Sequence record: PQ303785.1 | Direction: 5' to 3' (one strand) | DNA: 64,000 nt | Origin: Escherichia phage LYE-01 | Shown: positions 3,753 through 48,276 of the stretch, one piece after another | How the letters are laid out: the number at the start of each line of letters is the position of its first letter | Numbering within the stretch: the first letter of the stretch is position 1 | Translations under genes and position numbers: made by a program | The notes under the pieces: model-generated | What the model was told of the DNA's origin: nothing | The model's input: only the letters and a program-made list of their open reading frames with translations | Database searches by the model: none

Positions 3753-4955
3753 ATGAAAGTATGTATTTTTATGGCTCGAGGTCTTGAAGGTTGCGGTGTA
3801 ACTAAATTTTCTCTTGAGCAGCGTGATTGGTTTATTAAAAATGGTCATGAAGTAACTTTGGTTTATGCTAAAGATAAATCATTTACTCGTAATTGCGCGC
3901 ATGATTATAAATCATTTTCAATTCCGGTTTTATTGGCAAAAGAATACGATAAAACACTTAAGCTGGTAAATGATTGTGATATTCTAATTATCAATTCAGT
4001 TCCTGCTACTTCAGTCGAAGAAGACACGATTAATAACTATAAAAAAATTATTGATAACATTAAACCTTCGGTTCGTGTTGTAGTTTATCAGCATGACCAT
4101 TCTTCTCTTTCTTTGCGTCGAAATTTGGGATTAGAAGAAACTGTTCGTCGAGCTGATGTTATTTTTAGCCATTCTGATAATGGCGATTTTAATAAAGTTT
4201 TAATGAAAGAATGGTATCCAGAAACTGTTTCACTGTTTGATGATATTGAAGAAGCACCGACCGTATATAACTTTCAGCCTCCTATGGATATTGCGAAGGT
4301 TCGATCAACCTACTGGAAAGATGTTTCTGAAATTAACATGAATATCAATCGTTGGATTGGTCGTACTACTACATGGAAAGGCTTTTATCAGATGTTTGAT
4401 TTTCACGAAAAACATCTTAAACCTGCAGGACTAAGTACTATTATGGAAGGCCTGGAACGTTCTCCAGCGTTCATTCCTATTAAAGAAAAAGGAATTCCAT
4501 ACGAGTATTATCGTCTTCATCAAGTAGACCAAATTAAAATTGCTCCTAATTTGCCAACGCAAATTCTCGACCGTTATGTAAATAGCGAAATGCTTGAACG
4601 CATGAGTAAATCCGGATTTGGTTATCAGCTGAGTAAGTTGGACAAAAAATATCTACAGCGTTCTTTAGAATACACTCATCTCGAGCTTGGTGCATGTGGA
4701 ACAATTCCGGTATTTTGGAAATCTACGGGCGAAAATTTAAAATTCCGTGTTGATAATACTCCATTAATTTCTCATGATAGCGGTATCGTTTGGTTTGATG
4801 AAAATGACATGGAATCAACATTTGAACGTATTAAAGAACTGTCATCTGACCGAGCTCTTTATGACCGTGAACGTGAAAAAGCTTATGAATTTTTGTATCA
4901 GCATCAAGATTCAAGCTTCTGCTTTAAAGAACAGTTTGACATTATTACAAAATAA
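3753..4955 (+). CDS. agt: DNA alpha-glucosyltransferase (400 aa)
   Basis: 400 aa; sequence matches my recollection of T4 alpha-gt; synteny between 55 and 47. Confidence 0.85.
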   Translation: MKVCIFMARGLEGCGVTKFSLEQRDWFIKNGHEVTLVYAKDKSFTRNCAHDYKSFSIPVLLAKEYDKTLKLVNDCDILIINSVPATSVEEDTINNYKKIIDNIKPSVRVVVYQHDHSSLSLRRNLGLEETVRRADVIFSHSDNGDFNKVLMKEWYPETVSLFDDIEEAPTVYNFQPPMDIAKVRSTYWKDVSEINMNINRWIGRTTTWKGFYQMFDFHEKHLKPAGLSTIMEGLERSPAFIPIKEKGIPYEYYRLHQVDQIKIAPNLPTQILDRYVNSEMLERMSKSGFGYQLSKLDKKYLQRSLEYTHLELGACGTIPVFWKSTGENLKFRVDNTPLISHDSGIVWFDENDMESTFERIKELSSDRALYDREREKAYEFLYQHQDSSFCFKEQFDIITK

Positions 4956-4978
4956 AGGGCTTCGGCCCTTTAGCTTTA
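4955..4978 (+). terminator. GGGCTTCGGCCC hairpin plus T tract after alpha-gt
   Basis: AAGGGCTTCGGCCCTTTAGCTTT. Confidence 0.5.
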
Positions 4979-10445: not shown

Positions 10446-11132
10446 ATGAAACTGTCTAAAGATACTACTGCTCTGCTCAAAAATTTCGCTACTATTAACT
10501 CCGGTATTATGCTTAAATCCGGCCAATTTATTATGACTCGCGCAGTTAATGGTACCACTTATGCGGAAGCAAATATTTCTGACACTATTGATTTTGATGT
10601 AGCGATTTACGATTTGAACGGTTTTCTCGGTATTCTGTCTCTAGTTAATGATGATGCAGAAATTTCCCAGTCAGAAGATGGTAATATTAAAATTGCTGAT
10701 GCTCGTTCAACAATTTTTTGGCCAGCAGCCGATCCGAGTACAGTAGTTGCTCCTAATAAACCAATTCCATTCCCGGTAGCATCTGTTGTTACTGAAATTA
10801 AAGCTGAAGACCTTCAACAGCTGTTGCGTGTATCTCGTGGTCTGCAGATTGATACAATTGCTATCACAGTAAAAGAAGGTAAAATCGTAATTAACGGTTT
10901 TAATAAAGTAGAAGATTCTGCTTTGACACGTGTTAAATATTCTTTGACTCTTGGTGATTATGATGGTGAAAATACATTTAATTTCATTATCAATATGGCA
11001 AATATGAAAATGCAACCAGGAAATTATAAACTTCTGCTCTGGGCAAAAGGTAAACAAGGCGCTGCTAAATTTGAAGGTGAACATGCGAATTATGTAGTAG
11101 CTCTTGAAGCTGATTCTACCCACGATTTTTAA
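10446..11132 (+). CDS. 45: gp45 sliding clamp (228 aa)
   Basis: 228 aa; sequence and synteny as T4 gp45. Confidence 0.9.
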   Translation: MKLSKDTTALLKNFATINSGIMLKSGQFIMTRAVNGTTYAEANISDTIDFDVAIYDLNGFLGILSLVNDDAEISQSEDGNIKIADARSTIFWPAADPSTVVAPNKPIPFPVASVVTEIKAEDLQQLLRVSRGLQIDTIAITVKEGKIVINGFNKVEDSALTRVKYSLTLGDYDGENTFNFIINMANMKMQPGNYKLLLWAKGKQGAAKFEGEHANYVVALEADSTHDF

Positions 11133-11134
11133 TA

Positions 11135-11153
11135 GAGGGCTTCGGCCCTTTAT
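11135..11153 (+). terminator. GGGCTTCGGCCC UUCG hairpin after gene 45
   Basis: GAGGGCTTCGGCCCTTTATAATTT. Confidence 0.5.
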
Positions 11154-11183
11154 AATTTACACTAAAACTTGAATGAGGAAATT

Positions 11184-12709: not shown

Positions 12710-13078
12710 ATGATTGAAATTACTCTTAAAAAACCTGAAGATTTTCTGAAAGTAAAAGAAACCTTGACTCGTATGGGAATTGCTAATAATAAAGATAAAG
12801 TTCTGTATCAGTCCTGCCACATTCTTCAGAAAAAAGGACTATACTATATCGTTCATTTTAAAGAAATGCTTCGTATGGATGGTCGCCAGGTTGAAATGAC
12901 AGAAGAAGATGAAGTTCGTCGTGATTCGATTGCATGGCTGTTAGAAGATTGGGGACTGATTGAAATCGCTCCCGGTCAAAGAACTTTTATGAAAGATTTA
13001 ACTAATAACTTCCGAGTTATTTCTTTTAAACAAAAACATGAATGGAAGCTCGTTCCCAAATATACGATTGGTAATTAA
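12710..13078 (+). CDS. regA: RegA translational repressor (122 aa)
   Basis: 122 aa beginning MIEITLKKPEDFLKVKETLTRMG; synteny 62-regA-43. Confidence 0.85.
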   Translation: MIEITLKKPEDFLKVKETLTRMGIANNKDKVLYQSCHILQKKGLYYIVHFKEMLRMDGRQVEMTEEDEVRRDSIAWLLEDWGLIEIAPGQRTFMKDLTNNFRVISFKQKHEWKLVPKYTIGN

Positions 13079-13080
13079 GC

Positions 13081-13103
13081 AAGGGGCTTCGGCCCCTTAT
13101 TTG
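13081..13103 (+). terminator. GGGGCTTCGGCCCC UUCG hairpin plus T tract
   Basis: AAGGGGCTTCGGCCCCTTATTT. Confidence 0.5.
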
Positions 13104-13118
13104 GAGTATAATATATCA

Positions 13119-15865: not shown

Positions 15866-15888
15866 AGGGACCTCCAGGTCCCTTTTTC
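15866..15888 (+). terminator. rho-independent terminator GGGACC-TCCA-GGTCCC plus TTTTT
   Basis: Perfect 6-bp GC stem and T5 run after gene 43. Confidence 0.65.
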
Positions 15889-15970
15889 ATACAAGTAATA
15901 TAAATCTATACTTATGAAAAAGAGATGATTCTGGACCCTTTGGATTCCCTAAAATTTTTTTCACAAAACT

Positions 15971-16000
15971 GTTTACATCCCGGTTCCTTTATGGTACTAT
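15971..16000 (+). promoter_or_regulatory. T4-type early promoter of a PeSL-like cassette (GTTTAC, 18 nt spacer, TACTAT)
   Basis: TTTTCACAAAACTGTTTAC...TATGGTACTAT; one of four near-identical cassettes in the window. Confidence 0.55.
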
Positions 16001-16005
16001 ATAAC

Positions 16006-16034
16006 TATCAACTGATACGGATTTGGAGAATGAA
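16006..16034 (+). repeat. conserved early leader: TATCAACTGATA hairpin plus GGAGAAT SD
   Basis: TATCAACTGATACGGATTTGGAGAATGAAATG, near-identical to 43982-44013. Confidence 0.55.
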
Positions 16035-16415
16035 ATGAAAATCGCTATTTTGGTTATTGCATTGGGTCTTACTGGTTGTGTAGCTCAAGGACCGGTAGTA
16101 AATCAGTCTGATGTAGGAAAAATTGTAAACTGTTCAAGCAAATTTTATAATCCTAATGTTAAGTGTTATAAAGAGGCTCCAAAACAGACAGTAGAACAAA
16201 TGCAGGCGAATTTTGACGAAGCTATTCGTCCAGATGAATCTGCACAAGCATATCGTAATTCAGATGTGATTACACGCGAAGAAAAAATTGAAAACTACTG
16301 TGCTGAACTTTGGGCAAATTGGGCTAATAATTACCAATGGCGTACTGGTAAAAATGCTCCGATGGAGTATGTAGTAAATTCTTATAATTCATGTGTAAAA
16401 AATTTGACTAAGTGA
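16035..16415 (+). CDS. predicted lipoprotein (126 aa from ATG 16035)
   Basis: Signal peptide with lipobox (MKIAILVIALGLTGC); GGAG SD; position of T4 imm.1. Confidence 0.5.
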   Translation: MKIAILVIALGLTGCVAQGPVVNQSDVGKIVNCSSKFYNPNVKCYKEAPKQTVEQMQANFDEAIRPDESAQAYRNSDVITREEKIENYCAELWANWANNYQWRTGKNAPMEYVVNSYNSCVKNLTK

Positions 16416-20007: not shown

Positions 20008-21435
20008 GTGGTAGAAATTATTCTTTCTCATCTCATATTTGATCAAGCTTATTTTTCAAAAGTTTGGCCATATATGGATTCAGAATATTTTGAAAGTGGT
20101 CCAGCTAAAAATACATTCAAATTAATTAAATCTCATGTTAATGAGTACCATAGCGTTCCATCTATTAATGCGTTAAATGTTGCGTTAGAAAATAGTTCAT
20201 TTACTGAAACAGAATATTCTGGTGTAAAAACACTTATTTCAAAACTGGCCGATTCTCCGGAAGACCATAGCTGGTTAGTAAAAGAAACAGAAAAATATGT
20301 TCAGCAAAGGGCGATGTTTAACGCTACATCTAAAATAATTGAAATTCAAACTAATGCTGAGCTTCCTCCGGAAAAACGAAATAAGAAAATGCCAGATGTA
20401 GGTGCTATTCCTGACATCATGCGCCAAGCATTATCAATTTCATTTGATAGTTACGTTGGTCATGATTGGATGGATGACTACGAAGCACGTTGGCTATCTT
20501 ATATGAATAAAGCTCGTAAGGTTCCATTTAAACTCAAAATTCTAAATAAAATTACTAAAGGCGGAGCTGAAACTGGAACACTGAACGTTTTAATGGCTGG
20601 TGTTAACGTTGGTAAGTCATTAGGTCTGTGTTCATTGGCAGCAGATTATTTACAGCTTGGACATAATGTTCTTTACATTTCCATGGAAATGGCAGAAGAA
20701 GTCTGTGCTAAACGTATTGATGCTAATATGCTTGACGTTTCTCTTGATGACATTGATGATGGGCATATTTCTTACGCTGAATATAAAGGAAAAATGGAAA
20801 AATGGCGTGAGAAATCTACTCTTGGACGTTTAATCGTTAAACAGTATCCTACTGGTGGAGCAGACGCTAATACATTTCGTTCTCTTTTGAACGAATTGAA
20901 GCTCAAGAAGAATTTTGTTCCAACAATCATTATTGTCGACTATCTGGGCATTTGTAAATCTTGCCGCATCAGAGTTTATTCGGAAAATAGTTACACAACT
21001 GTTAAAGCCATCGCAGAAGAATTGCGTGCTCTGGCTGTTGAAACTGAAACTGTTCTTTGGACTGCAGCACAGGTTGGTAAGCAAGCTTGGGATTCTTCTG
21101 ATGTTAACATGAGCGATATTGCGGAATCTGCCGGTCTTCCAGCAACAGCCGATTTTATGCTTGCGGTCATTGAAACCGAGGAGTTAGCAGCTGCTGAACA
21201 ACAACTCATTAAGCAAATCAAATCACGATATGGTGATAAGAATAAATGGAATAAGTTTTTGATGGGTGTTCAAAAAGGAAATCAGAAATGGGTAGAAATT
21301 GAACAAGATTCTACTCCAACTGAAGTGAACGAAGTAGCAGGTTCACAACAGATACAAGCTGAACAGAACCGCTATCAAAGAAACGAATCCACTCGAGCTC
21401 AGTTAGATGCTTTGGCGAATGAATTAAAATTTTAG
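20008..21435 (+). CDS. 41: gp41 replicative DNA helicase (475 aa, GTG start)
   Basis: Begins MVEIILSHLIFDQAYF; Walker A GVNVGKS; 475 aa as T4 gp41. Confidence 0.9.
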   Translation: MVEIILSHLIFDQAYFSKVWPYMDSEYFESGPAKNTFKLIKSHVNEYHSVPSINALNVALENSSFTETEYSGVKTLISKLADSPEDHSWLVKETEKYVQQRAMFNATSKIIEIQTNAELPPEKRNKKMPDVGAIPDIMRQALSISFDSYVGHDWMDDYEARWLSYMNKARKVPFKLKILNKITKGGAETGTLNVLMAGVNVGKSLGLCSLAADYLQLGHNVLYISMEMAEEVCAKRIDANMLDVSLDDIDDGHISYAEYKGKMEKWREKSTLGRLIVKQYPTGGADANTFRSLLNELKLKKNFVPTIIIVDYLGICKSCRIRVYSENSYTTVKAIAEELRALAVETETVLWTAAQVGKQAWDSSDVNMSDIAESAGLPATADFMLAVIETEELAAAEQQLIKQIKSRYGDKNKWNKFLMGVQKGNQKWVEIEQDSTPTEVNEVAGSQQIQAEQNRYQRNESTRAQLDALANELKF

Positions 21436-21464
21436 TTTACAAGCTGACAAGACTATGGTATAGT
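21435..21464 (+). promoter_or_regulatory. early promoter; -35 GTTTAC shares its G with the gene 41 TAG stop; -10 lies inside an 8-bp inverted repeat
   Basis: TAGTTTACAAGCTGACAAGACTATGGTATAGTAGTCTTGT. Confidence 0.5.
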
Positions 21465-21493
21465 AGTCTTGTTGGTTAAATGAGGAGATTGTT

Positions 21494-21677: not shown

Positions 21678-21920
21678 ATGCACATTGTTTTATTTAAACC
21701 TACTCCGTATAATGTCAGGAAAAATACTCAATTCAAGGCACTTATTGCGGATACGTGGGAATTGGTGTTAGATATTCCAGCAGAAGAAAGCCCTCCATTT
21801 GGTCGAGTGGAATTTATTAAGTTTGCTGTGCGCCCTACGAAGCGACAGATTCGCCAATGCAAAAGATACTTTCGTAAAATCGTCAAGTTAGAGAAACAGT
21901 TATTGATGCTAGTAAAATAG
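21678..21920 (+). CDS. hypothetical protein, 61.4-like position (80 aa from ATG 21678)
   Basis: GAGGA SD; starts 2 nt after dmd stop; basic C-terminus. Confidence 0.4.
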   Translation: MHIVLFKPTPYNVRKNTQFKALIADTWELVLDIPAEESPPFGRVEFIKFAVRPTKRQIRQCKRYFRKIVKLEKQLLMLVK

Positions 21921-21922
21921 TA

Positions 21923-21952
21923 GTTTACAAGCTGATAGAGTTGTGTTATAGT
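21923..21952 (+). promoter_or_regulatory. early promoter (TAGTAGTTTAC, 18 nt spacer, TATAGT) with -10 embedded in a 9-bp inverted repeat
   Basis: AGCTGATAG...CTATCAGCT flank GTTATAGTA; paralogous to the element at 21435. Confidence 0.5.
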
Positions 21953-21983
21953 AATTCTATCAGCTAATCGCGGAGAAAAGAAA

Positions 21984-23384: not shown

Positions 23385-24413
23385 ATGTCATCAATACCTT
23401 GGATTGATAATGAGTTTGCATACCGTGCGCTAGCTCATTTACCTAAATTCACACAAGTAAATAATAGTTCAACTTTTAAATTACGGTTTAGATGCCCTGT
23501 TTGTGGAGATTCAAAAACCGACCAAAATAAAGCCCGTGGATGGTATTATGGCGATAATAATGAAGGAAATATTCATTGTTATAATTGCAACTATCATGCA
23601 CCAATCGGAATATATTTAAAGGAGTTTGAACCCGATTTATATCGTGAGTATATCTTTGAAATAAGAAAAGAAAAAGGTAAAAGTCGTCCAGTAGAAAAAC
23701 CTAAAGAACTTCCTAAACAACCTGAGAAGAAAATAATTAAATCTCTTCCGTCATGTATTAGATTAGATAAACTGGCGGAAGACCATCCAATTATAAAATA
23801 CGTAAAAGCTCGCTGTATTCCAAAGGACAAATGGAAATATCTTTGGTTTACAACCGAATGGCCTAAATTAGTTAATAGCATAGTACCAGGAACATACAAA
23901 AAGGAAATACCTGAGCCTCGTCTTGTTATTCCAATTTATAATGCTAATGGAAAAGCTGAGTCTTTTCAAGGACGTGCATTAAAGAAAGATGCTCCTCAAA
24001 AATATATCACCATCAAAGCTTATCCTGAGGCAACAAAAATCTATGGTGTTGAACGGATTAAAGACGGTGATGTATATGTTCTAGAAGGACCTATAGATTC
24101 GCTTTTTATTGAAAATGGTATAGCTATTACGGGCGGTCAATTAGACCTAGAAATTGTTCCATTTAAAGATAGACGTGTATGGGTTTTAGATAATGAACCT
24201 CGTCACCCTGACACTATTAAACGAATGACTAAATTAGTTGATGCAGGAGAAAGGGTTATGTTTTGGGATAAATCTCCCTGGAAATCAAAAGATGTTAATG
24301 ATATGATTAGAAAGGAAGGTGCAACCCCTGAACAAATTATGGAATATATGAAAAATAATATTGCCCAAGGGCTGATGGCTAAAATGCGGCTATCTAAATA
24401 TGCTAAGATTTAA
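23385..24413 (+). CDS. 61: gp61 DNA primase (342 aa)
   Basis: Begins MSSIPWIDNEFAYRALAHLPKF; Zn-ribbon CPVCGDS...CYNC; 342 aa as T4 gp61. Confidence 0.9.
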   Translation: MSSIPWIDNEFAYRALAHLPKFTQVNNSSTFKLRFRCPVCGDSKTDQNKARGWYYGDNNEGNIHCYNCNYHAPIGIYLKEFEPDLYREYIFEIRKEKGKSRPVEKPKELPKQPEKKIIKSLPSCIRLDKLAEDHPIIKYVKARCIPKDKWKYLWFTTEWPKLVNSIVPGTYKKEIPEPRLVIPIYNANGKAESFQGRALKKDAPQKYITIKAYPEATKIYGVERIKDGDVYVLEGPIDSLFIENGIAITGGQLDLEIVPFKDRRVWVLDNEPRHPDTIKRMTKLVDAGERVMFWDKSPWKSKDVNDMIRKEGATPEQIMEYMKNNIAQGLMAKMRLSKYAKI

Positions 24414-24610
24414 ATTAACCCAACCAAAGCAAATGCTAAATCTACGAATGTATCAAGAGTAATTACTGGAATACTAACGCCATGAGCAATAGCAACTGGC
24501 GATAAAACAAAATTCCAAAGTAAAATTCCTATCATAGCAGAAATAGTAAAAGCTATACGTTTTTTATTACCTTTGATGGCATTAACAAGTGCCATTAATT
24601 TTTGTACCAT
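24410..24610 (-). CDS. hypothetical small two-TM membrane protein (66 aa), antisense to the early block
   Basis: ATG preceded by AGGAGG at 7 nt spacing; two hydrophobic helices; stop overlaps gene 61 stop tail-to-tail. Confidence 0.45.
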   Translation of the reverse strand: MVQKLMALVNAIKGNKKRIAFTISAMIGILLWNFVLSPVAIAHGVSIPVITLDTFVDLAFALVGLI

Positions 24611-24659
24611 GCGTCGTCCTCCTTTAAATTAAATATTTATCGCAAATTTTACAAAATTT

Positions 24660-24689
24660 GTTTACTTTCTCAGCTTGCTGTGGTATTAT
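24660..24689 (+). promoter_or_regulatory. T4-type early promoter (GTTTAC, 18 nt spacer, TG-extended TATTAT) driving ORF 24715
   Basis: TTTGTTTACTTTCTCAGCTTGCTGTGGTATTAT then CTGAGGATAAT SD leader. Confidence 0.55.
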
Positions 24690-24714
24690 AAAATAAACTG
24701 CTGAGGATAATATA

Positions 24715-26054
<1,340 letters not shown>

Positions 26055-33377: not shown

Positions 33378-34060
33378 TGTTTGATTTTATTATAGATTTT
33401 GAAACAATGGGAAGCGGTGAAAAAGCAGCTGTTATTGATTTGGCTGTAATTGCTTTTGACCCTAACCCAGAAGTAGTTGAAACATTTGATGAATTAGTTT
33501 CACGCGGCATTAAAATCAAATTTGATTTAAAAAGCCAAAAAGGACATCGTCTTTTTACTAAAAGCACTATCGAATGGTGGAAGAATCAATCTCCTGAAGC
33601 TAGAAAAAATATTGCACCATCCGATGAAGATGTAAGCACTATCGATGGTATTGCAAAATTTAATGATTACATTAATGCACATAATATCGATCCTTGGAAA
33701 TCTCAAGGCTGGTGTCGTGGAATGTCATTTGATTTTCCAATTTTAGTCGATCTCATTCGTGATATTCAGCGTCTTAATGGTGTATCTGAGAATGAGCTTG
33801 ACACATTTAAGTTAGAACCATGTAAATTCTGGAATCAGCGTGATATTCGTACCAGAATTGAAGCACTTCTCCTTGTTCGTGATATGACCACATGTCCTCT
33901 TCCAAAGGGAACTTTAGATGGATTCGTTGCACATGATTCTATTCATGACTGTGCGAAAGACATCCTGATGATGAAGTATGCTTTGCGATATGCTATGGGT
34001 CTTGAAGATGCTCCGTCAGAGGAAGATTGCGATCCTCTATCTCTTCCAACAAAACGATAA
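33377..34060 (+). CDS. dexA: DexA exonuclease A (DEDD 3-5 exonuclease, 227 aa)
   Basis: N-terminal DFETMG exo motif; 227 aa; position as T4 dexA. Confidence 0.8.
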   Translation: MFDFIIDFETMGSGEKAAVIDLAVIAFDPNPEVVETFDELVSRGIKIKFDLKSQKGHRLFTKSTIEWWKNQSPEARKNIAPSDEDVSTIDGIAKFNDYINAHNIDPWKSQGWCRGMSFDFPILVDLIRDIQRLNGVSENELDTFKLEPCKFWNQRDIRTRIEALLLVRDMTTCPLPKGTLDGFVAHDSIHDCAKDILMMKYALRYAMGLEDAPSEEDCDPLSLPTKR

Positions 34061-34066
34061 AAAGTT

Positions 34067-34096
34067 GTTTACTTCCTCGGTTAGTTGTGGTATTAT
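34067..34096 (+). promoter_or_regulatory. T4-type early promoter
   Basis: AAAAGTTGTTTAC, 18 nt spacer, TGTGGTATTAT; GAGGATAAT SD leader. Confidence 0.55.
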
Positions 34097-34123
34097 AACA
34101 CCATAGCTACTGAGGATAATAAA

Positions 34124-34624
34124 ATGAAAATTTATCGTGTTGAATCATCTTTTAGTATTCTTAATTATGAAGATGCTATAACAATACGTCGAAATCTTTG
34201 TGTTCAAATAACGCCGTACAGGAGTATAATAGATTCATGGAGCGAAGAGTGGTTATTACACGTAGGTTATGATAGACCTAATTTTATGCATCATAGCGAT
34301 AATAATAAAAGAATTCCTTTACCACACGAAGATAAACTATTAGTTAAAAACGCTAATATAGTAATTAATACTAAGTTCAAGAAAGATTATGTTGGAGTAG
34401 AATATCATATTCCAGGATGGTTTATAGCTCTTTATCATTTTGCTTTCGCTAGTGAATATGATATGATGAGATGGTTCACACGAGAAGAGCGGGAAGAATT
34501 ATCTTCTAAAGGATTTTATCTTGCTGTATACGAAGTGCCAGATGACCAAGTTATCATTGGCAGGCGCCAAGTAATGTTCCGCAAATCACATGCTGAACTC
34601 GTAGATTTTATTGAAATGAGATAA
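34124..34624 (+). CDS. hypothetical protein (166 aa from ATG 34124)
   Basis: ORF after early promoter and SD. Confidence 0.4.
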   Translation: MKIYRVESSFSILNYEDAITIRRNLCVQITPYRSIIDSWSEEWLLHVGYDRPNFMHHSDNNKRIPLPHEDKLLVKNANIVINTKFKKDYVGVEYHIPGWFIALYHFAFASEYDMMRWFTREEREELSSKGFYLAVYEVPDDQVIIGRRQVMFRKSHAELVDFIEMR

Positions 34625-35733: not shown

Positions 35734-35781
35734 AGTTTAAAATTTTTTCATAAAACTATATACATCAGTAGTTGATTATGG

Positions 35782-35830
35782 TACTATATCAATATCAACT
35801 ACTGATACAGAAAACAACTTGGAGAATAAA
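35782..35830 (+). repeat. PeSL-like leader copy with degenerate -35 (TACTAT, TATCA-ACTAC-TGATA hairpin, GGAGAAT SD)
   Basis: Near-identical to the 47594-47640 copy. Confidence 0.45.
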
Positions 35831-36100
35831 ATGGAAAACTTAATTATCATCGAACAATCTTTCAACGATTATGGTATGGCTTACGGTTATCGTGCGATAA
35901 TGGAAGATTCTCGTGGATGTGTTATCGATATTGCTGAATGTAAAGATTTACTGCAGCTTTTGAAGATTGTTCGCAAAAATTGGGATTGTGAAAACATTAA
36001 AGTTCGTGTTGTAACGGAAGAAGAAACTGTTTTTCATGATGTAAAATTTGCCAAAGGTGCTGCTACTCTTCTGAAACGCATCGCTCCACTGTTCAATTAA
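35831..36100 (+). CDS. hypothetical protein (89 aa from ATG 35831)
   Basis: ORF behind the conserved GGAGAATAAAATG leader. Confidence 0.4.
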   Translation: MENLIIIEQSFNDYGMAYGYRAIMEDSRGCVIDIAECKDLLQLLKIVRKNWDCENIKVRVVTEEETVFHDVKFAKGAATLLKRIAPLFN

Positions 36101-37305: not shown

Positions 37306-37566
37306 ATGAAATATGTTAATCGTTCTATCGCGGCATTAGTATTAGCAGTATCTTTAGTAGGATGTACTGATGCTGATAATGCAACCAAAGTTTTGTCTTC
37401 AAGTGGGTTTACTAATATTGAAATCACTGGATACAATTGGTTTGGTTGCTCTGAAAATGATTTCCAACACACTGGATTTCGTGCTATTGGACCTACTGGG
37501 CAGAAAGTAGAAGGAACCGTGTGTTCTGGTCTATTCTTCAAGGATTCGACTATCCGTTTTAAATAA
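37306..37566 (+). CDS. predicted lipoprotein (86 aa from ATG 37306)
   Basis: Signal peptide plus lipobox (AVSLVGC). Confidence 0.45.
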   Translation: MKYVNRSIAALVLAVSLVGCTDADNATKVLSSSGFTNIEITGYNWFGCSENDFQHTGFRAIGPTGQKVEGTVCSGLFFKDSTIRFK

Positions 37567-37590
37567 AAGGCCTTCGGGCCTTTAGCTTTA
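37566..37590 (+). terminator. GGCCTTCGGGCC UUCG hairpin plus T tract
   Basis: AAAGGCCTTCGGGCCTTTAGCTTT. Confidence 0.5.
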
Positions 37591-37635
37591 TGATTACTGG
37601 AGTATAATATTCCCGAAACCAAACGAGGATAAGTG

Positions 37636-39453
37636 ATGATTAAGAATGAAATTAAAATTCTGAGCGATATTGAACATATCAAAAAGCGTAGCGGCATGTA
37701 CATTGGCTCTTCCGCTAATGAAATGCATGAGCGCTTTCTGTTTGGTAAATGGGAAAGTGTTCAGTATGTACCTGGTCTTGTTAAGCTTATTGATGAAATT
37801 ATTGATAACTCAGTAGATGAAGGTATTCGTACTAAGTTTAAATTCGCAAATAAAATTAATGTTACTATCAAAAACAATCAAGTAACAGTTGAAGATAACG
37901 GTCGTGGTATTCCACAAGCGATGGTTAAAACACCTACCGGTGAAGAAATTCCTGGTCCAGTTGCTGCATGGACTATTCCAAAGGCAGGTGGTAACTTTGG
38001 TGATGATAAAGAACGCGTCACTGGTGGTATGAATGGTGTTGGTTCTAGTTTAACTAACATTTTTTCTGTGATGTTTGTCGGTGAAACTGGCGACGGTCAA
38101 AATAATATTGTAGTTCGTTGTTCAAATGGCATGGAAAATAAATCATGGGAAGATATTCCTGGAAAATGGAAAGGAACACGTGTTACTTTCATTCCTGATT
38201 TTATGTCATTTGAAACTAATGAGCTATCTCAGGTTTATCTTGACATTACACTAGATCGTCTCCAGACACTTGCGGTAGTTTATCCTGATATTCAATTTAC
38301 CTTTAATGGTAAAAAGGTTCAGGGTAATTTTAAGAAATATGCACGCCAATATGATGAACACGCTATCGTTCAAGAACAAGAAAATTGTTCTATTGCGGTT
38401 GGTCGTTCACCTGATGGTTTTCGTCAATTAACATACGTTAATAACATTCATACTAAGAATGGTGGCCATCACATTGACTGCGTTATGGATGATATTTGTG
38501 AAGACCTTATTCCACAAATCAAACGTAAGTTCAAAATTGATGTAACTAAAGCACGTGTTAAAGAATGTTTGACTATCGTTATGTTTGTTCGTGATATGAA
38601 AAACATGCGATTTGATTCTCAAACTAAAGAGCGTTTGACTTCTCCATTTGGTGAAATTCGTAGTCATATTCAGCTTGATGCTAAAAAGATTTCACGTGCT
38701 ATTTTAAATAATGAAGCAATTTTAATGCCAATCATTGAAGCTGCCTTGGCTCGTAAATTGGCGGCAGAAAAAGCAGCAGAAACTAAAGCAGCTAAAAAGG
38801 CTTCTAAAGCCAAGGTTCATAAACATATTAAAGCGAATCTTTGTGGTAAAGATGCTGATACTACTCTTTTCTTGACTGAGGGTGATTCTGCTATCGGATA
38901 TCTTATTGATGTTCGTGATAAAGAACTTCATGGTGGTTATCCATTGCGTGGTAAAGTTCTCAACAGTTGGGGTATGTCTTATGCTGATATGCTTAAAAAC
39001 AAAGAACTGTTTGATATTTGCGCAATCACTGGATTGGTTCTTGGTGAAAAGGCTGAAAACTTAAATTATCATAATATTGCAATTATGACCGATGCTGACC
39101 ATGATGGTCTAGGAAGCATTTATCCTTCTCTGCTCGGATTTTTTAGTAATTGGCCAGAACTGTTTGAACAAGGAAGAATTCGCTTCGTCAAAACTCCTGT
39201 AATCATCGCTCAGGTCGGTAAAAAACAAGAATGGTTTTATACAGTCGCTGAATATGAGAGTGCTAAAGATGCTCTACCTAAACATAGCATCCGTTATATT
39301 AAAGGACTTGGCTCTTTGGAAAAATCTGAATATCGTGAGATGATTCAAAACCCAGTATATGATGTTGTTAAACTTCCTGAGAATTGGAAAGAGCTTTTTG
39401 AAATGCTCATGGGAGATAATGCTGACCTTCGTAAAGAATGGATGAGCCAGTAG
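37636..39453 (+). CDS. 39: DNA topoisomerase II large (ATPase) subunit, continuous gene 39 of T2/T6 type (605 aa)
   Basis: Begins MIKNEIKILSDIEHIKKRSGMYIGS; GHKL ATPase motifs; continuous to 605 codons with no split or bypass. Confidence 0.9.
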   Translation: MIKNEIKILSDIEHIKKRSGMYIGSSANEMHERFLFGKWESVQYVPGLVKLIDEIIDNSVDEGIRTKFKFANKINVTIKNNQVTVEDNGRGIPQAMVKTPTGEEIPGPVAAWTIPKAGGNFGDDKERVTGGMNGVGSSLTNIFSVMFVGETGDGQNNIVVRCSNGMENKSWEDIPGKWKGTRVTFIPDFMSFETNELSQVYLDITLDRLQTLAVVYPDIQFTFNGKKVQGNFKKYARQYDEHAIVQEQENCSIAVGRSPDGFRQLTYVNNIHTKNGGHHIDCVMDDICEDLIPQIKRKFKIDVTKARVKECLTIVMFVRDMKNMRFDSQTKERLTSPFGEIRSHIQLDAKKISRAILNNEAILMPIIEAALARKLAAEKAAETKAAKKASKAKVHKHIKANLCGKDADTTLFLTEGDSAIGYLIDVRDKELHGGYPLRGKVLNSWGMSYADMLKNKELFDICAITGLVLGEKAENLNYHNIAIMTDADHDGLGSIYPSLLGFFSNWPELFEQGRIRFVKTPVIIAQVGKKQEWFYTVAEYESAKDALPKHSIRYIKGLGSLEKSEYREMIQNPVYDVVKLPENWKELFEMLMGDNADLRKEWMSQ

Positions 39454-41910: not shown

Positions 41911-42849
41911 ATGTACAATATTAAATGCCTGACCAAAAACGAACAAGCTGAAATTGTTAAACTGTATTCAAGTGGTAATTACACCCAACAGGAATTGGCT
42001 GATTGGCAAGGTGTATCGGTTGACACAATCCGTCGTGTTTTGAAAAATGCTGAAGAAGCTGAGCGTTCCAAAGTTACTATTAGCGGTGATATTACAGTTA
42101 AAGTTAAGAGTGATGTAGCTATTGCTTCAGTTGCTAAATCTGACATTATTTGGAATGCATCTAAAAAATTCATTTCAATTACTGTTGATGGCGTAACTTA
42201 CAACGCAACTCCTAATACTCATTCAAACTTCCAGGAAATTCTTAATCTGCTTGTTGCAGATAAATTGGAAGAAGCGGCACAAAAAATTAATGTTCGTCGC
42301 GCTGTTGAAAAATATATTTCCGGTGATGTTCGAATTGAAGGTGGAAGCCTGTTCTATCAAAATATTGAATTGCGGTCTGGTTTAGTTGATCGTATTCTCG
42401 ATTCGATGGAAAAAGGTGAAAACTTTGAATTTTATTTTCCGTTCTTGGAAAATCTGCTGGAAAACCCGAGCCAAAAAGCGGTATCTCGACTCTTTGATTT
42501 CTTGGTAGCAAACGATATTGAAATTACAGAAGACGGTTACTTCTATGCTTGGAAAGTAGTTCGCAGCAATTACTTTGACTGTCACTCAAATACCTTTGAT
42601 AACAGTCCTGGTAAAGTAGTTAAAATGCCACGTACTCGTGTGAATGACGATGATACACAAACTTGTTCTCGTGGTCTGCATGTGTGTTCTAAATCTTATA
42701 TTCGTCACTTTGGCAGTTCAACCAGTCGAGTTGTAAAAGTTAAAGTACATCCTCGCGATGTAGTATCAATTCCGATTGATTACAACGATGCTAAAATGCG
42801 TACCTGCCAATACGAAGTAATTGAAGACGTTACTGAACAATTTAAATAA
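41911..42849 (+). CDS. rIIB: rIIB protein (312 aa)
   Basis: 312 aa ORF following rIIA, as T4 rIIB. Confidence 0.85.
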   Translation: MYNIKCLTKNEQAEIVKLYSSGNYTQQELADWQGVSVDTIRRVLKNAEEAERSKVTISGDITVKVKSDVAIASVAKSDIIWNASKKFISITVDGVTYNATPNTHSNFQEILNLLVADKLEEAAQKINVRRAVEKYISGDVRIEGGSLFYQNIELRSGLVDRILDSMEKGENFEFYFPFLENLLENPSQKAVSRLFDFLVANDIEITEDGYFYAWKVVRSNYFDCHSNTFDNSPGKVVKMPRTRVNDDDTQTCSRGLHVCSKSYIRHFGSSTSRVVKVKVHPRDVVSIPIDYNDAKMRTCQYEVIEDVTEQFK

Positions 42850-42865
42850 GGGCTTCGGCCCTTAA
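42848..42865 (+). repeat. GGGCTTCGGCCC UUCG hairpin without U-run (RNA stability or processing element)
   Basis: AAGGGCTTCGGCCCTTAACT. Confidence 0.4.
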
Positions 42866-42877
42866 CTAAGGAAAATT

Positions 42878-43072
42878 ATGTTAGGTTATCAAGCACGAGT
42901 AAAAGAAGAATACGATCAATTAATGCTCAAAATTAATGCACTGAGCAAATTTTTAGAAAGCACAAAGTTTCTAACGATTAATGAAGTTGAGCAAGAACTG
43001 TTGCTTTCACAATTTATCTCAATGAAATCTTACGCAGATTGTTTAGAGAAAAGAATTGCACAATTCAAATAA
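42878..43072 (+). CDS. hypothetical protein (64 aa)
   Basis: ORF with AAGGA SD. Confidence 0.4.
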   Translation: MLGYQARVKEEYDQLMLKINALSKFLESTKFLTINEVEQELLLSQFISMKSYADCLEKRIAQFK

Positions 43073-43075
43073 AAT

Positions 43076-43440: not shown

Positions 43441-43930
43441 CTTGACTAGTGAAATGAAGGTCAAAATTGCTGATACAGCAAGATACTCTTTAAAACAAAA
43501 TCCTAATCAGGATAAAGCAGAAGTTATTGAAAGATGTCGCATCGCTGTGTACGCAGAATTTTTTGTAGCAGATTGGCTAAGCGGGTATGTTAACAAAGGC
43601 CAAGAGGATGTTAATGACCCGTATACATATGCGTGGGATGTACTGGCGCATCCAAAATACTGCGGGCTTCGTGTAGAAGTCAAAACACATCAAACTGACT
43701 CACGTTGGATTTCGGTAACAACCGGATGCAGCGGAGAGTATCCATACGGTTCTGGAATAAATCTAGGGCCCATTCTGAATCATCAAGTCGCTGACTGTAT
43801 AATTATATTCAACACTAAAGAAATTCATCCAGGTGTCATCCAGTACACTCCGAAGTTCATCGGTGATAGAGAAGACCTTCGTAAGGTTGTAAGAAAAAGC
43901 AACTACAACGGATGGTATCTTTCCATTTAA
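43373..43930 (+). CDS. denB: DenB-like endonuclease IV (185 aa)
   Basis: 185 aa ORF in the rIIB-ndd interval where T4 denB lies; size and position from recall only. Confidence 0.5.
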   Translation: MQKTNPGLQRLFQIPTFTLSNSDLTSEMKVKIADTARYSLKQNPNQDKAEVIERCRIAVYAEFFVADWLSGYVNKGQEDVNDPYTYAWDVLAHPKYCGLRVEVKTHQTDSRWISVTTGCSGEYPYGSGINLGPILNHQVADCIIIFNTKEIHPGVIQYTPKFIGDREDLRKVVRKSNYNGWYLSI

Positions 43931-43946
43931 AAATTTTCACAAAACG

Positions 43947-43976
43947 GTTTACATACCACAAGGACTGTGGTACTAT
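43947..43976 (+). promoter_or_regulatory. T4-type early promoter of a PeSL-like cassette
   Basis: TTTTCACAAAACGGTTTAC, 18 nt spacer, TGTGGTACTAT. Confidence 0.55.
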
Positions 43977-43981
43977 ACAAC

Positions 43982-44010
43982 TATCAACTGATACGGATTT
44001 GGAGAATAAA
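43982..44010 (+). repeat. conserved early leader: TATCAACTGATA hairpin plus GGAGAAT SD
   Basis: Identical core to 16006-16034. Confidence 0.55.
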
Positions 44011-44217
44011 ATGTTTACTACAGCTGAATTAAAACGAGCAAAAGCTAAGAAAGGGCAAGGAAAATATAAAGCTGAATTAGTTAAAGAACTTCAGTTTGCT
44101 GAGGCTGAATTGAATTCAATGATTATTCAAAATGCTCCAGAAACTGAAATTGCTCTTAAACGTATTGCGAATAAGTGTCTTCGTGATGCAATCGTCGTTC
44201 TTTTAGCGGATTATTGA
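44011..44217 (+). CDS. hypothetical protein (68 aa)
   Basis: ORF behind conserved leader. Confidence 0.4.
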   Translation: MFTTAELKRAKAKKGQGKYKAELVKELQFAEAELNSMIIQNAPETEIALKRIANKCLRDAIVVLLADY

Positions 44218-44434
44218 GTAAAATGAAAATCGTTGAGATTGAACTATGAGTTCATTATGGTGGTGTTTCATTTGGTTAATTAGTATTCCATTAATTTGTT
44301 TAACATTTACTTTTGTGATGAGGTTATTATGAAAATTTTGAATTCTGTACTTATTGCTTGTGCGTGGTGGGTTGCGCAAGTTTCGGCAGTAGTGATTGGT
44401 ATTCACATTTATTACGAATATTTTTAAAAAAGTT

Positions 44435-44464
44435 GTTTACAAGACTGTTCCTCTGTGGTATTAT
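44435..44464 (+). promoter_or_regulatory. early promoter; 7-bp inverted repeat GTTCCTC/GAGGAAC brackets the -10 and SD
   Basis: AAAGTTGTTTAC, 18 nt spacer, TGTGGTATTAT. Confidence 0.5.
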
Positions 44465-44492
44465 TACTCTATCAACTACGGAGGAACAGAAA

Positions 44493-44606
44493 ATGAAAAA
44501 GATTGTTAAAGCTATATGGAATGTAGTTATAATACTAGTAGTTTTGAGTATATTCCCAATCGTTTTAATGATTGATGTATTAAACGCTTACTTTGGATTT
44601 ATGTGA
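44493..44606 (+). CDS. hypothetical tiny membrane protein (37 aa)
   Basis: GGAGG SD; single TM. Confidence 0.3.
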   Translation: MKKIVKAIWNVVIILVVLSIFPIVLMIDVLNAYFGFM

Positions 44607-47513: not shown

Positions 47514-47518
47514 TTTTA

Positions 47519-47545
47519 GGGAGAGCCTCGGCTCTCCCTTTTTTA
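47519..47545 (+). terminator. rho-independent terminator GGGAGAGCC-TCG-GCTCTCCC plus TTTTTT
   Basis: Perfect 8-9 bp stem and T-run. Confidence 0.65.
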
Positions 47546-47569
47546 TTTCAAAATTTTTTTCACAAAACG

Positions 47570-47599
47570 GTTTACAACCAAAGCATACTGTGGTACTAT
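47570..47599 (+). promoter_or_regulatory. T4-type early promoter of a PeSL-like cassette upstream of motA
   Basis: TTTTTTTCACAAAACGGTTTAC, 18 nt spacer, TGTGGTACTAT. Confidence 0.55.
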
Positions 47600-47604
47600 A
47601 CAAC

Positions 47605-47640
47605 TATCAACTACTGATACAGAATTACGGAGATTAGAAA
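47605..47640 (+). repeat. conserved leader hairpin TATCA-ACTAC-TGATA plus GGAG SD before motA
   Basis: Paralogous to 35793-35830. Confidence 0.5.
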
Positions 47641-48276
47641 ATGTCTAAAGTAACTTACATCATCAAAGCTTCTAACGATGTTCTGAATGAAAAAACTGCT
47701 GCGATTTTAATTACCATTGCTAAGAAAGATTTCATTACAGCTGCAGAAGTTCGTGAGGTGCATCCAGATTTAGGTAATGCAGTAGTTAATAGTAATATTG
47801 GGGTATTGATTAAAAAAGGCCTGGTGGAGAAATCTGGTGATGGATTAATCATTACAGGTGAAGCTCAGGATATTATTTCAAATGCAGCAACTTTATACGC
47901 ACAGGAAAACGCTCCTGAACTGCTGAAAAAACGAGCAACTCGTAAAGCTCGTGAGATTACTTCTGATATGGAAGAAGATAAAGACTTCATGTTAAAACTT
48001 TTAGATGAAAATGGATTTGTTCTTAAAAAGGTTGAAACTTATCGTAGTAACTATCTCGCTATTTTAGAAAAACGCACTCACGGAATTCGTAATTTTGAAA
48101 TTAACAACAATGGAAATATGCGAATTTTTGGATACAAAATGATGGAACATCATATTCAGAAATTTACTGATATCGGAATGTCATGTAAAATCGCTAAAAA
48201 CGGTAATGTGTATCTTGACATTAAACGCTCGGCAGAAAACATTGAAGCTGTAATCACCGTAGCATCTGAACTGTGA
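47641..48276 (+). CDS. motA: MotA middle-transcription activator (211 aa)
   Basis: Begins MSKVTYIIKASNDVLNEKTAAILITIAKKDF; 211 aa as T4 MotA. Confidence 0.9.
   Translation: MSKVTYIIKASNDVLNEKTAAILITIAKKDFITAAEVREVHPDLGNAVVNSNIGVLIKKGLVEKSGDGLIITGEAQDIISNAATLYAQENAPELLKKRATRKAREITSDMEEDKDFMLKLLDENGFVLKKVETYRSNYLAILEKRTHGIRNFEINNNGNMRIFGYKMMEHHIQKFTDIGMSCKIAKNGNVYLDIKRSAENIEAVITVASEL

Follow-up and report, generated by a model that had tools for sequence, protein, structure and literature searches.

Five probable promoter and leader cassettes of the T-even early type in a Tequatrovirus genome and the variability of their gene junctions

T4-like phages place a strong early promoter and a short mRNA leader ahead of many early genes, and the 64,000-nt stretch of Escherichia phage LYE-01 analysed here (PQ303785.1; hereafter the window) carries five related cassettes that are, very probably, T-even-type early promoter and 5'-leader units, or PeSLs in the naming of the Krisch group. 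The window belongs to a Tequatrovirus (a T4-like coliphage) with 97.6% identity to phage GEP001, and its plus strand corresponds to the early strand of T4. An earlier note on this DNA had reported four of the cassettes; the observation is correct and the interpretation right, but such units have already been described in the PeSL papers on RB49/phi1 (2010) and T4/PST (2014) and in the literature on T4 early promoters and RegB. Since PeSLs are well known and have already been reported as spots where small genes are swapped, the cassettes are real but not new. The window adds one further example, together with mosaicism below the cassette level, junctions located exactly at the ATG, and a conserved leader block that is unexplained. 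PeSLs illustrate how T4-like phages pack small accessory genes as self-contained expression units, in which a strong early promoter is joined to a short open leader and RegB provides a built-in 'off switch', and the gain, loss and swapping of such units bears on the turnover of host-range and anti-defence genes.

Each unit spans approximately 95 bp and contains, from 5' to 3', an A/T-rich UP-like tract, a -35 element, a 15-nt spacer, an extended -10 element (TGGTACTAT), a leader block and a Shine-Dalgarno (SD) sequence. The -35 element is GTTTAC in copies 1, 2, 3 and 5 and ATATAC in copy 4, and the start-site/leader block is almost invariant (CTATCAACT[ACT]GATACRG). The GGAG of the SD is located 8-10 nt upstream of the ATG in all copies, inside a RegB/S1 target 11-mer that abuts the ATG. 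A sigma-70 scan recovered TTTACA-17-TACTAT with a TG extension at copies 1, 2, 3 and 5; the 18-nt spacer given in the earlier note thus holds if counted from GTTTAC to TACTAT, but becomes 17 nt in the sigma-70 register. The architecture of T4 early promoters (UP, -35 GTTTAC, TGn, -10 TAnnAT, 17-bp spacing) is present throughout, with copy 4 departing from it in the -35 only. An assignment to MotA-dependent middle promoters was rejected, as inspection by eye of copies 1-4 revealed no MotA box (TGCTT) at -30, where GTTTAC is found.

In an unbiased repeat search, the cassettes come out as the highest-ranking family of dispersed direct repeats in the window (repeats D1, D3 and D4). The 21-nt core GGTACTATANNANTATCAACT occurs four times exactly and once with three mismatches, against 0.06 occurrences expected by chance in the window, and TTTTCACAAAACNGTTTAC has three exact occurrences (0.29 expected), with copy 4 and three other early promoters matching at no more than three mismatches. 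Compared over their full length, any two copies are 66-79% identical (mean 71%), the corresponding figure for the window's remaining early promoters being 57%. The earlier description of the copies as near-identical was overstated, and the similarity comes in blocks. The extended -10 is 100% identical within the family versus 76% among other promoters, and the 21 nt that follow it are 70% versus 32% identical in ungapped comparison, whereas the 15-nt spacer is unconserved (38% versus 28%). The longest exact runs common to the copies are 14-29 nt. Across 544 records, the family occupies about five places per genome, matching the five in the window, and the T4 members of this long-leader sub-family comprise six promoters plus three partial ones.

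Copy 1 (15941..16037, plus strand) is located between gene 43, encoding DNA polymerase, and imm.1 (DUF5481). Its -35 GTTTAC (15971-15976) and extended -10 TGGTACTAT (15992-16000) are followed by the palindrome TATCAACTGATA (16006-16017), the SD/RegB-like sequence GGAGAATGAAA (16025-16035, plus strand) and the ATG (16035-16037); the orthologous promoter in T4 has its -35 at 27080. A terminator-like hairpin of gene 43, AGGGACCTCCAGGTCCCT with a T-run (15866..15883, plus strand), lies about 60 nt upstream. Copy 3 (47551..47643, plus strand) is the early promoter and leader of motA, with the -35 at 47570-47575, TGGTACTAT at 47591-47599, the palindrome TATCAACTACTGATA at 47605-47619, the SD/RegB site GGAGATTAGAA at 47629-47639 and the ATG at 47641-47643 (plus strand), and from its -35 through to its ATG it does not differ from T4. 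An intrinsic-terminator hairpin, AGGGAGAGCCTCGGCTCTCCCT followed by T6 (47518..47539, plus strand), abuts the UP tract of this copy.

Copy 2 (43921..44013, plus strand) and the end of denB overlap, and a 68-aa ORF (phrog_4535) follows. The cassette comprises a -35 at 43947-43952, TGGTACTAT at 43968-43976, TATCAACTGATA at 43982-43993, an exact RegB/S1 11-mer GGAGAATAAAA at 44001-44011 and the ATG at 44011-44013 (plus strand). Downstream of it extends a variable module (44011..44249, plus strand), in which the 68-aa ORF (44011-44217) is followed by a second SD-ATG end, GAGTAAAATG, and by the 9-codon remnant MKIVEIEL* (44223-44249, plus strand), which corresponds to the 3' end of an 87-aa ORF occupying the same site in RB51 and pSs-1. 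The four copies listed originally are all real, but the list was incomplete, as a fifth, diverged copy (TGGTATTAT...CTATCAACTACGGAGGAACAGAAAATG; 44405..44495, plus strand) is found 488 bp downstream of copy 2, preceding an ndd.4-like 37-aa ORF. This copy 5 has a -35 GTTTAC at 44435-44440, TGGTATTAT at 44456-44464, TATCAACT at 44470-44477 and a short leader with a GGAGG SD before the ATG at 44493-44495 (plus strand); its T4 orthologue has the -35 at 166807.

Copy 4 (35740..35833, plus strand) lies downstream of motB and upstream of an 89-aa ORF (phrog_3720) that is truncated in T4. Its -35, rightly described before as degenerate, is ATATAC (35758-35763), followed by TGGTACTAT (35779-35787), TATCAACTACTGATA (35793-35807), the exact RegB/S1 11-mer GGAGAATAAAA (35821-35831) and the ATG (35831-35833, plus strand). 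It is possible, but doubtful, that copy 4 is a decayed promoter whose leader, ribosome-binding site and RegB site serve read-through transcripts from motB. The element carries two mismatches in an otherwise invariant GTTTAC, and ATATAC is kept in T4 and, among the matches listed, in IMG/VR relatives; a terminator scan found none upstream of copy 4, and the motB stop codon abuts the UP tract. Degraded 'half' PeSLs are known near indels from Comeau et al. 2014 (PMC4122927), who also described PeSLs in the nt-1/KVP40 pair. However, copy 4 has kept its UP-like T-tract, its TGn extended -10 and the correct spacing, and promoters with an extended -10 can work without a good -35; TGn/-10 promoters are discussed in the Hinton review. 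Orthologues preserve the entire unit, which points to its continued use. Copy 4 would probably retain promoter activity, and, given its poor -35 kept in orthologues, may be weak or dependent on the TGn extended -10.

The four units reported first lie at the coordinates given there, and the last base of each is the G of an ATG start codon, these codons starting at 16035, 35831, 44011 and 47641. Four of the five copies precede small ORFs of unknown function and the remaining one precedes motA; the ORFs following the copies each belong to a different family, in agreement with the claim that every copy heads a different gene. The orthologous early-promoter sites in T4 are those of imm.1, upstream of cef, ndd.6, ndd.4 and motA.

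The cassettes have the anatomy outlined above, are orthologous to T4 sites and match the RegB consensus, and their early activity with unmodified host polymerase appears likely from identity to the T4 motA promoter region and from reviews. Right after infection, unmodified host sigma-70 RNA polymerase would recognize the UP-like tract, (G)TTTACA and the extended -10 TGnTACTAT, and, judging by the spacing, transcription would start approximately 6-8 nt downstream of the -10, within or close to CT-A-TC. The predicted leader of 30-45 nt is A/U-rich and essentially unstructured, and at its 3' end the GGAG SD provides the first four bases of the RegB/S1 11-mer GGAGAAUAAAA. This overlap at the leader end suggests that the downstream gene would be translated in a burst, and RegB together with ribosomal protein S1 would then cut within GGAG, leaving the mRNA inactive within minutes, as shown for T4 motA and presumed for the others.

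The RegB/S1 target consensus GGAGAAUAAAA summarizes 26 sites that are cleaved in vivo (Durand 2006). In the 64 kb, GGAGRAYARAA is matched exactly just twice, in copies 2 and 4; copies 1 and 3 each deviate by a single base, a G at position 8 and a U at position 6 of the 11-mer, respectively, and the A at position 8 is among the most conserved (Durand 2006). Copy 5 has the GGAGG variant of the SD and a C at position 8, and in copies 1, 2 and 4 the last A of the 11-mer is also the A of AUG. RegB cleavage at the motA SD of T4 has been established experimentally (Hinton review; Durand 2006). Together with the exact or nearly exact 11-mers and the identity of the motA copy to T4, this makes the proposal that the GGAG SD is a RegB target plausible, and copies 1, 2, 4 and 5 may be cleaved as well. 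RNA structure inhibits RegB, and the targets in the leaders are predicted to be single-stranded, the leaders folding no better than shuffled sequence. The regB gene maps outside the window (62.3-62.7 kb in T4); it is full-length at 95% identity or more in 501 Tequatrovirus records, and is therefore very likely present in this phage. All eight strict RegB matches in T4 are an identical 11-mer abutting the ATG, and five of the eight occur in TATCAACT leaders. An improbable reading, which would go with a function of its own for the conserved leader block described below, is that the T4 'RegB consensus' GGAGAAUAAAA owes part of its sharpness to shared ancestry of the cassettes instead of enzyme specificity.

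The leader palindrome, TATCAACTGATA in copies 1 and 2 and TATCAACTACTGATA in copies 3 and 4, had been described as a hairpin. It is no credible structure, nor is it the stem-loop of the PeSL definition. Both folding and pair counting failed to support it as an RNA or DNA structure: the hairpin reaches only -0.6 to -1.9 kcal/mol as RNA and 0 to -1.3 kcal/mol as DNA, covariation is zero, and whole leaders have predicted minimum free energies (MFE) of -0.4 to -3.0 kcal/mol, with z-scores of +0.4 to +1.3 versus shuffled sequence. The Rfam search gave no match at the gathering threshold anywhere in the window, the palindrome included. We consider it very unlikely that TATCA-N2/5-TGATA is a functional element, acting either as an RNA 5' stem-loop (a stabiliser or attenuator) or as a DNA operator. 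In favour of such a role, all four copies contain the palindrome, most of the collected copies have unchanged arms, isolated 17-20-mers fold better than shuffles (z = -2.4 and -4.9), and one PeSL subclass has a stem-loop downstream of the -10 (Arbiol 2010). However, the weak hairpin is missing from the MFE structure of two full leaders, and transcription probably starts within the 5' arm or beside it. Same-site orthologues of T4 and the window (imm.1 and ndd.6) have their arms 2 versus 5 nt apart, which is incompatible with a fixed dimer operator. Moreover, the 3' arm is destroyed by the variant AACTAATACGG in L018, L061 and PYps55T, and related leaders (copy 5, T4 nrdC.9 and the ipI type) keep TATCAACT and lack the 3' arm. 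The binder proposed for the operator version is a dimeric regulator or a recombination protein.

The block CTATCAACT[ACT]GATACRG, spanning approximately +1 to +20, is the best conserved part of the cassettes, yet is unaccounted for by the needs of the promoter, the SD or RegB. That it is a functional signal of its own appears improbable. As one option, the block may set the fate of a subset of immediate-early mRNAs through S1/ribosome loading or RNase access; as another, it may be a preferred crossover or docking sequence, explaining the clustering of exchanges between the -10 and the ATG.

We compared synteny at the cassettes in about 500 Tequatrovirus records, scoring whether both flanks of a copy were contiguous. 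The flanks of copy 2 are contiguous in 114 of 506 records (23%) and those of copy 4 in 213 of 506 (42%), with synteny breaking exactly at the 3' edge of the cassette and alignments ending at the ATG, whereas a control junction without a promoter in the same region is contiguous in 493 of 494 records (99.8%). Insertions were also found at the two other copies reported before: PYps55T has an extra ORF directly after copy 1, and phage 107 has one at copy 3, between two cassettes with a common 23-nt leader block. The module exchange proposed for the copies is seen at copies 2 and 4 and, as occasional insertions, at copies 1 and 3, but the copy 3 (motA) junction is almost invariant among relatives. 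The second control, an early promoter outside the family that has no paralogue and occurs at one place per record, is contiguous in 145 of 503 records, its breaks falling at the upstream edge. Variability at gene units led by early promoters is thus general rather than peculiar to the long-leader sub-family, which is not specially recombinogenic.

Parts of the cassettes are themselves mosaic. Downstream of gene 43, each of two spacer types is found with either of two following genes, giving all four combinations; the T4 promoters at 55384 and 146875 share approximately 75 identical bp, including the unconstrained spacer, and diverge after ACAACTATC; and pSs-1 and RB51 are alike in promoter and ORF and have the leader swapped. 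The module table pools the T4 and window copies with at least 31 filtered IMG/VR matches, a few of which are still chance matches; in the underlying IMG/VR pattern scan, 92 of 123 among the matches listed were due to chance and had no -35. Breakpoints thus coincide with cassette edges, and mosaicism occurs within cassettes. With about five same-orientation copies per genome sharing exact blocks of 14-29 nt, the cassettes may also act as crossover or microhomology points. The comparison of relatives shows insertion, deletion or replacement of small early genes exactly at the boundary between leader and ATG, as well as trading of promoter, spacer and leader segments between paralogous copies. 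The exact shared blocks are well under the approximately 50 bp usually quoted for efficient T4 recombination, and several junctions look less like crossovers between two cassettes than like microhomology deletions at the A-rich SD-ATG. For the T4 8-codon remnant MKIAEIEL* after the ndd.6 cassette, which has ATGAAAATCGCT in common with imm.1, a conversion tract from the imm.1 cassette was considered and rejected, since RB51 and pSs-1 carry at that site an 87-aa ORF whose 3' end is this remnant, pointing to an internal deletion.

An alternative, which we regard as rather unlikely, is that the cassettes resemble each other because they do the same job and are not preferred recombination substrates, with convergence and a selection filter producing the pattern. 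Recombinants cut elsewhere would break genes or regulation, hence the location of breakpoints at cassettes under such a filter. The conserved blocks are mostly of known function (UP, -35, TGn/-10, SD/RegB) and the spacer is unconserved, the exact runs in common are short, the paralogue-free control promoter is equally variable, and microhomology deletions at sequences resembling AAAATGAAA account for some events, all of which convergence would accommodate. It does not readily explain why the block with no known functional requirement is the best conserved, or why unconstrained spacers are identical at non-orthologous loci (T4 55384/146875 and the T4 imm.1/ndd.4 type). The four-gamete combinations and the leader-only swap indicate real exchange inside cassettes, the ORF inserted in phage 107 is bounded by cassettes with a shared leader block, and RB49 provides PeSL mini-circles, whose crossovers have been located by experiment in the interval from the -10 to the ATG (Arbiol et al. 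2010, RB49/phi1). We infer that homology, rather than selection alone, probably causes the breakpoints.

From the T4 early promoter (PE) class, reportedly treated by Liebig and Rueger in 1989, Wilkens and Rueger in 1994 and Miller et al. in 2003, the cassettes differ in nothing essential; they form a sub-family with the -10 TACTAT and the leader CTATCAACT[ACT]GATACRG. T4 early promoters combine UP, -35, TGn and -10 elements with extra conserved regions (Hinton review). Like the RegB/S1 sites of T4 early mRNAs (Uzan 1988; Durand et al. 2006), the cassettes have a GGAG SD followed by an A-rich, C-free 7-mer, although cleavage has been demonstrated in T4 and is predicted here from the sequence. 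The PeSL papers make no mention of RegB (0 occurrences in Arbiol 2010). The T-even IP-locus motifs, as summarised from Repoila et al. 1994 in Arbiol 2010, are similarly based on T4 early promoters and show gene-cassette polymorphism; they contain weak AT-rich stem-loops and differ in being located at other loci (ipI/ipII/ipIII), outside the window.

Compared with PeSLs, the cassettes differ in the defining stem-loop, a terminator or attenuator just upstream of the promoter in PST/T4, which is found directly upstream only at copy 3; the terminator scan detected none upstream of copies 2, 4 and 5, and that of copy 1 is about 60 nt away. The stems published for PST/T4 are described as weak and of variable sequence (AGNA-loop-TCNT), and the scan could have overlooked them. 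In other respects the PeSL-like label of the earlier note is apt. Both are repeats of about 100 bp with an AT-rich tract and a sigma-70-type early promoter, followed by the SD and ATG of a small gene, as in the elements of Comeau et al. 2014 (PMC4122927), and both occur in several same-orientation copies per genome, adjoining indels and replacements between close relatives. PeSLs favour hyperplastic regions, where they precede small ORFs, and neighbouring PeSLs can recombine into mini-circles (Arbiol 2010; Comeau 2014). The promoter consensus for T4/PST, TTTACW-N17-TAYWAT (Comeau et al. 2014, PMC4122927), fits the cassettes of the window, the -35 of copy 4 being degenerate, and the exchange given as an example in that study, in the ndd.4/.5 region, adjoins copies 2 and 5 described here.

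The promoter/leader cassettes of Escherichia phage LYE-01 are located at 15941-16037, 43921-44013, 47551-47643 and 35740-35833 (copies 1 to 4, respectively), and reading of these intervals confirmed the four units placed there by the earlier note. Each unit opens with an A/T-rich tract containing TTTTCA(C/T)AAAAC and then GTTTAC, which is replaced by ATATAC in copy 4. The following 15-nt segment differs from copy to copy and leads to TGGTACTAT and (A/T)(C/T)(A/C)A(C/T)TATCAACT[ACT]GATAC(A/G)G, after which a brief variable stretch runs into GGAG...ATG, the G of the start codon being the last base of each interval. Within the window, the 21-nt core pattern has four exact matches and one with three mismatches (chance expectation 0.06), and the upstream pattern has three exact matches and four more with up to three mismatches (chance expectation 0.29); the cassettes are also the top dispersed direct-repeat family in an unbiased repeat search. 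The extra core-pattern match is a diverged fifth member (copy 5, 44405-44495), found 488 bp 3' of copy 2. Copy 1 lies between gene 43 and imm.1, copy 2 spans the denB end and precedes a 68-aa ORF, copy 3 precedes motA, copy 4 is behind motB and ahead of an 89-aa ORF, and copy 5 is ahead of an ndd.4-like 37-aa ORF.

The architecture, comprising an UP-like tract, a -35 element (G)TTTACA, 17 bp, and TGn plus TACTAT, is that of T4 early promoters, described in reviews as a class of "UP/-35/TGn/-10" promoters with further conserved regions. Promoter activity and start site of the cassettes are predicted from sequence. Copy 3 is the counterpart of the early promoter region of T4 motA, with which it agrees in every base from the -35 to the ATG. 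The degenerate -35 of copy 4 is kept as such in orthologues, which suggests that this promoter may be weak or decayed.

The earlier description of the copies as near-identical overstates their similarity: compared pairwise over the whole unit, they are 66-79% identical (mean 71%), and the longest exact runs common to two copies are 14-29 nt. The copies are more alike than unrelated early promoters, of which the window has five others, with 57% identity among them. The extended -10 is 100% identical in the family versus 76% in the other promoters; for the 21 nt after the -10 the ungapped values are 70% and 32%, the family reaching ~100% if one 3-nt indel is permitted. From -35 to -10, the spacer is unconserved, as its identity is 38% in the family versus 28% in the other promoters. 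Judged by these alignments, the copies constitute a real sub-family.

The window also contains further sub-families of early promoters, each with a shared leader of its own. The pair at 21425-21488 and 21913-21976, 488 bp apart, has the -10 TATAGT; the equality of this spacing with that between copies 2 and 5 is probably a coincidence. Another pair, at 24653-24718 and 34060-34127, has in common GTTTACTT...TGGTATTAT and the leader CTRCTGAGGATAATAWAATGA.

The hairpin that the earlier note placed in the leader was retained only as a palindrome: TATCA-N2/5-TGATA is real, whereas folding, covariation and arm-spacing evidence speak against a credible structure. Its stability is -0.6 to -1.9 kcal/mol as RNA and 0 to -1.3 kcal/mol in DNA form. 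In two leaders the minimum-energy fold lacks the hairpin, and the folding of complete leaders is not superior to that of shuffled sequence (z = +0.4 to +1.3). No covariation was detected in eight distinct variants of the palindrome (from the window, T4, PYps55T and IMG/VR contigs among the matches listed), and no Rfam family was matched. The arm-to-arm distance is 2 versus 5 nt in orthologues at one site, the variant AACTAATACGG, present at at least three loci among the matches listed, has a destroyed 3' arm, and related leaders retain TATCAACT with the 3' arm wholly absent. A leader hairpin was rejected on this weak folding, zero covariation, variable spacing and lost arm. The stem-loop of the T4/PST PeSLs (promoter-early stem-loops) is a terminator-type structure directly upstream of the promoter (Comeau 2014, PMC4122927); in the hairpin scan, which may miss weak and variable stems, such a structure was detected directly next to copy 3 only (47518-47539), and another, at 15866-15883, precedes copy 1 at a distance of ~60 nt.

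A second dispersed repeat family of the window consists of GGGCTTCGGCCC hairpins with a UUCG tetraloop and flanking A/T runs, located at 4949-4978, 11129-11158, 13076-13105, 37561-37590 and 43071-43100, and also at 1566-1593 and 42836-42863. These are terminator-like intergenic stem-loops.

The target of the endoribonuclease RegB with ribosomal protein S1 is an 11-nt single-stranded GGAGRAYARAA, with the T4 consensus GGAGAAUAAAA, as derived from the mapping of 26 T4 sites cut in vivo (Durand et al. 2006). RNA structure inhibits RegB, in agreement with open leaders. In a scan of the 64 kb, the exact 11-mer was found in copies 2 and 4 only (44001-44011 and 35821-35831, respectively), copies 1 and 3 being one base away; in copies 1, 2 and 4, the A of the ATG is the final A of the 11-mer. 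The scan also retrieves known cut sites, namely the motB Shine-Dalgarno sequence and the GGAU sites of 55.2 and motB.2. The motA Shine-Dalgarno sequence is an established RegB site in T4, and its sequence is unchanged in copy 3. The regB gene maps outside the window and is full-length in 501 relatives. With exact 11-mers in copies 2 and 4 and the T4 motA site in copy 3, the earlier suggestion that the GGAG is a plausible RegB target is supported, and the cassettes of this phage are well-supported candidate targets on the strength of sequence and literature together. Copy 1 also contains a mini-ORF, ATGAAATGA (MK*, window 16030-16038), which is out of frame and overlaps both the true start of imm.1 (16035) and the RegB-like 11-mer; the G that gives rise to it is also the one by which position 8 deviates from the RegB consensus.

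A scan of 149 kb of T4 yielded eight strict GGAGRAYARAA matches, all of them the identical 11-mer GGAGAATAAAA on the early strand and adjoining an ATG, and five of the eight lie in leaders with TATCAACT. The narrow T4 consensus is tighter than the SELEX consensus (Durand et al.). Since all eight matches are identical and five belong to such leaders, the sharpness of the T4 consensus may be partly due to paralogy, that is, common descent of promoter-leader cassettes.

The window belongs to a Tequatrovirus (97.6% identity to phage GEP001 across 4 kb), and its + strand is the early, counter-clockwise strand of T4. T4 has the motif at orthologous positions; the 149 kb of its sequence that were scanned contain six long-leader members (imm.1, nrdC.10, e.8, motA, ndd.6 and a cef-upstream copy) and three partial relatives (nrdC.9, ndd.4 and frd.3). 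The 95-nt unit used as query matched 2,769 places in 544 phage records (~5 per genome), essentially all Tequatrovirus.

Synteny was assessed in ~500 Tequatrovirus records with ~600-nt queries, each with a cassette at its centre. Contiguous flanks were found in 114 of 506 records at copy 2, where partial alignments stop at the last base of the ATG (44013) or just after TATCAACT (43989), and in 213/506 at copy 4, where the alignment ends 2-4 nt past the ATG. The copy 1 junction is contiguous in 496/504, with a ~250-bp insertion in many records, and that of copy 3 is nearly invariant (479/~506 Tequatrovirus). The copy-1 cassette of PYps55T drives an additional ORF of 78 aa, with imm.1 coming next without a promoter, and in phage 107 a 75-aa ORF is inserted between the motA-type promoter and motA, with a cassette on each side, both with CTATCAAATAAATGAACTGAAAC. 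Two controls were compared: a junction without a promoter, also in the ndd region, is contiguous in 493/494 records, and a non-family early promoter after gene 61 (primase) in 145/503. The latter unit (early promoter at 24660, window 24380-24970) is present in these 145 records, and alignments in the remaining ones end at query 231-267 (~24610-24646), at the promoter's upstream edge; these endpoints indicate that the early promoter at 24660 moves together with its gene. Module shuffling at the cassettes thus stands, with copies 2 and 4 often broken and insertions at copies 1 and 3, but the gene 61 control argues against its being specific to the sub-family; gene turnover is therefore linked to early-promoter-led units generally. 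A frequent synteny break also occurs near window ~43358, directly 5' of the denB start (query 159-160 onward aligned in many records), where a 109-aa ORF (43111-43440) overlaps the start of denB (43373-43930).

Mosaicism within the cassette was traced in a module table that combines the window with T4 and with IMG/VR contigs among the matches listed. Among these matches, one denB-end promoter is joined to at least three different downstream sequences, and behind gene 43 each of two spacer types is found with each of two downstream genes, giving all four combinations; the table also contains non-orthologous loci with identical spacers. Two T4 promoters, at 55.38 and 146.88 kb, have the same sequence over ~75 bp, spacer included, and differ beyond ACAACTATC. 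pSs-1 and RB51 share the promoter and an 87-aa ORF and differ in the leader. This agrees with PeSL crossovers mapped between the -10 and the ATG (Arbiol 2010). In the window, the 68-aa ORF of copy 2 is flanked by GGAGAATAAAATG and GAGTAAAATG and followed by MKIVEIEL*, a remnant of an RB51-type ORF. T4 MKIAEIEL* is the same remnant, derived from an internal deletion at AAAATGAAA microhomology, which refuted its origin by conversion from imm.1. According to these comparisons, deletion between microhomologies in the A-rich SD-ATG stretch contributes beside cassette-to-cassette exchange.

Elsewhere in the window, 37633-39453 holds one 606-aa ORF, at the position of which T4 has gene 39, a mobA pseudogene, 60.1 and the split gene 60 with a 50-nt translational bypass. 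The phage appears to have an unsplit topoisomerase II large subunit, as do many T-even relatives. The - strand long tail-fibre gene region at 58500-59410 contains short imperfect direct repeats with 108-120-bp and ~375-bp spacings, which probably correspond to the repeated motifs already known from fibres of the gp34/gp37 type.

Both the early promoters of T4 and RegB sites belong to textbook knowledge. In the PeSL and RegB literature examined, no function is assigned to the strongly conserved block CTATCAACT[ACT]GATACRG, and the identity of the eight strict T4 matches, with five in TATCAACT leaders, was not found; the unassigned block and the possible paralogy behind the RegB consensus are modest points. 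The definition of PeSLs comes from RB49/phi1 (Arbiol 2010) and was extended explicitly to the T4/PST pair, with an example of exchange in the ndd.4/.5 region and a promoter consensus, TTTACW-N17-TAYWAT, that the cassettes match (Comeau 2014, PMC4122927). Given the PeSL papers, the T4 early promoters and the RegB literature, the PeSL-like interpretation of the earlier note is essentially correct and already published, and the cassettes are known elements.
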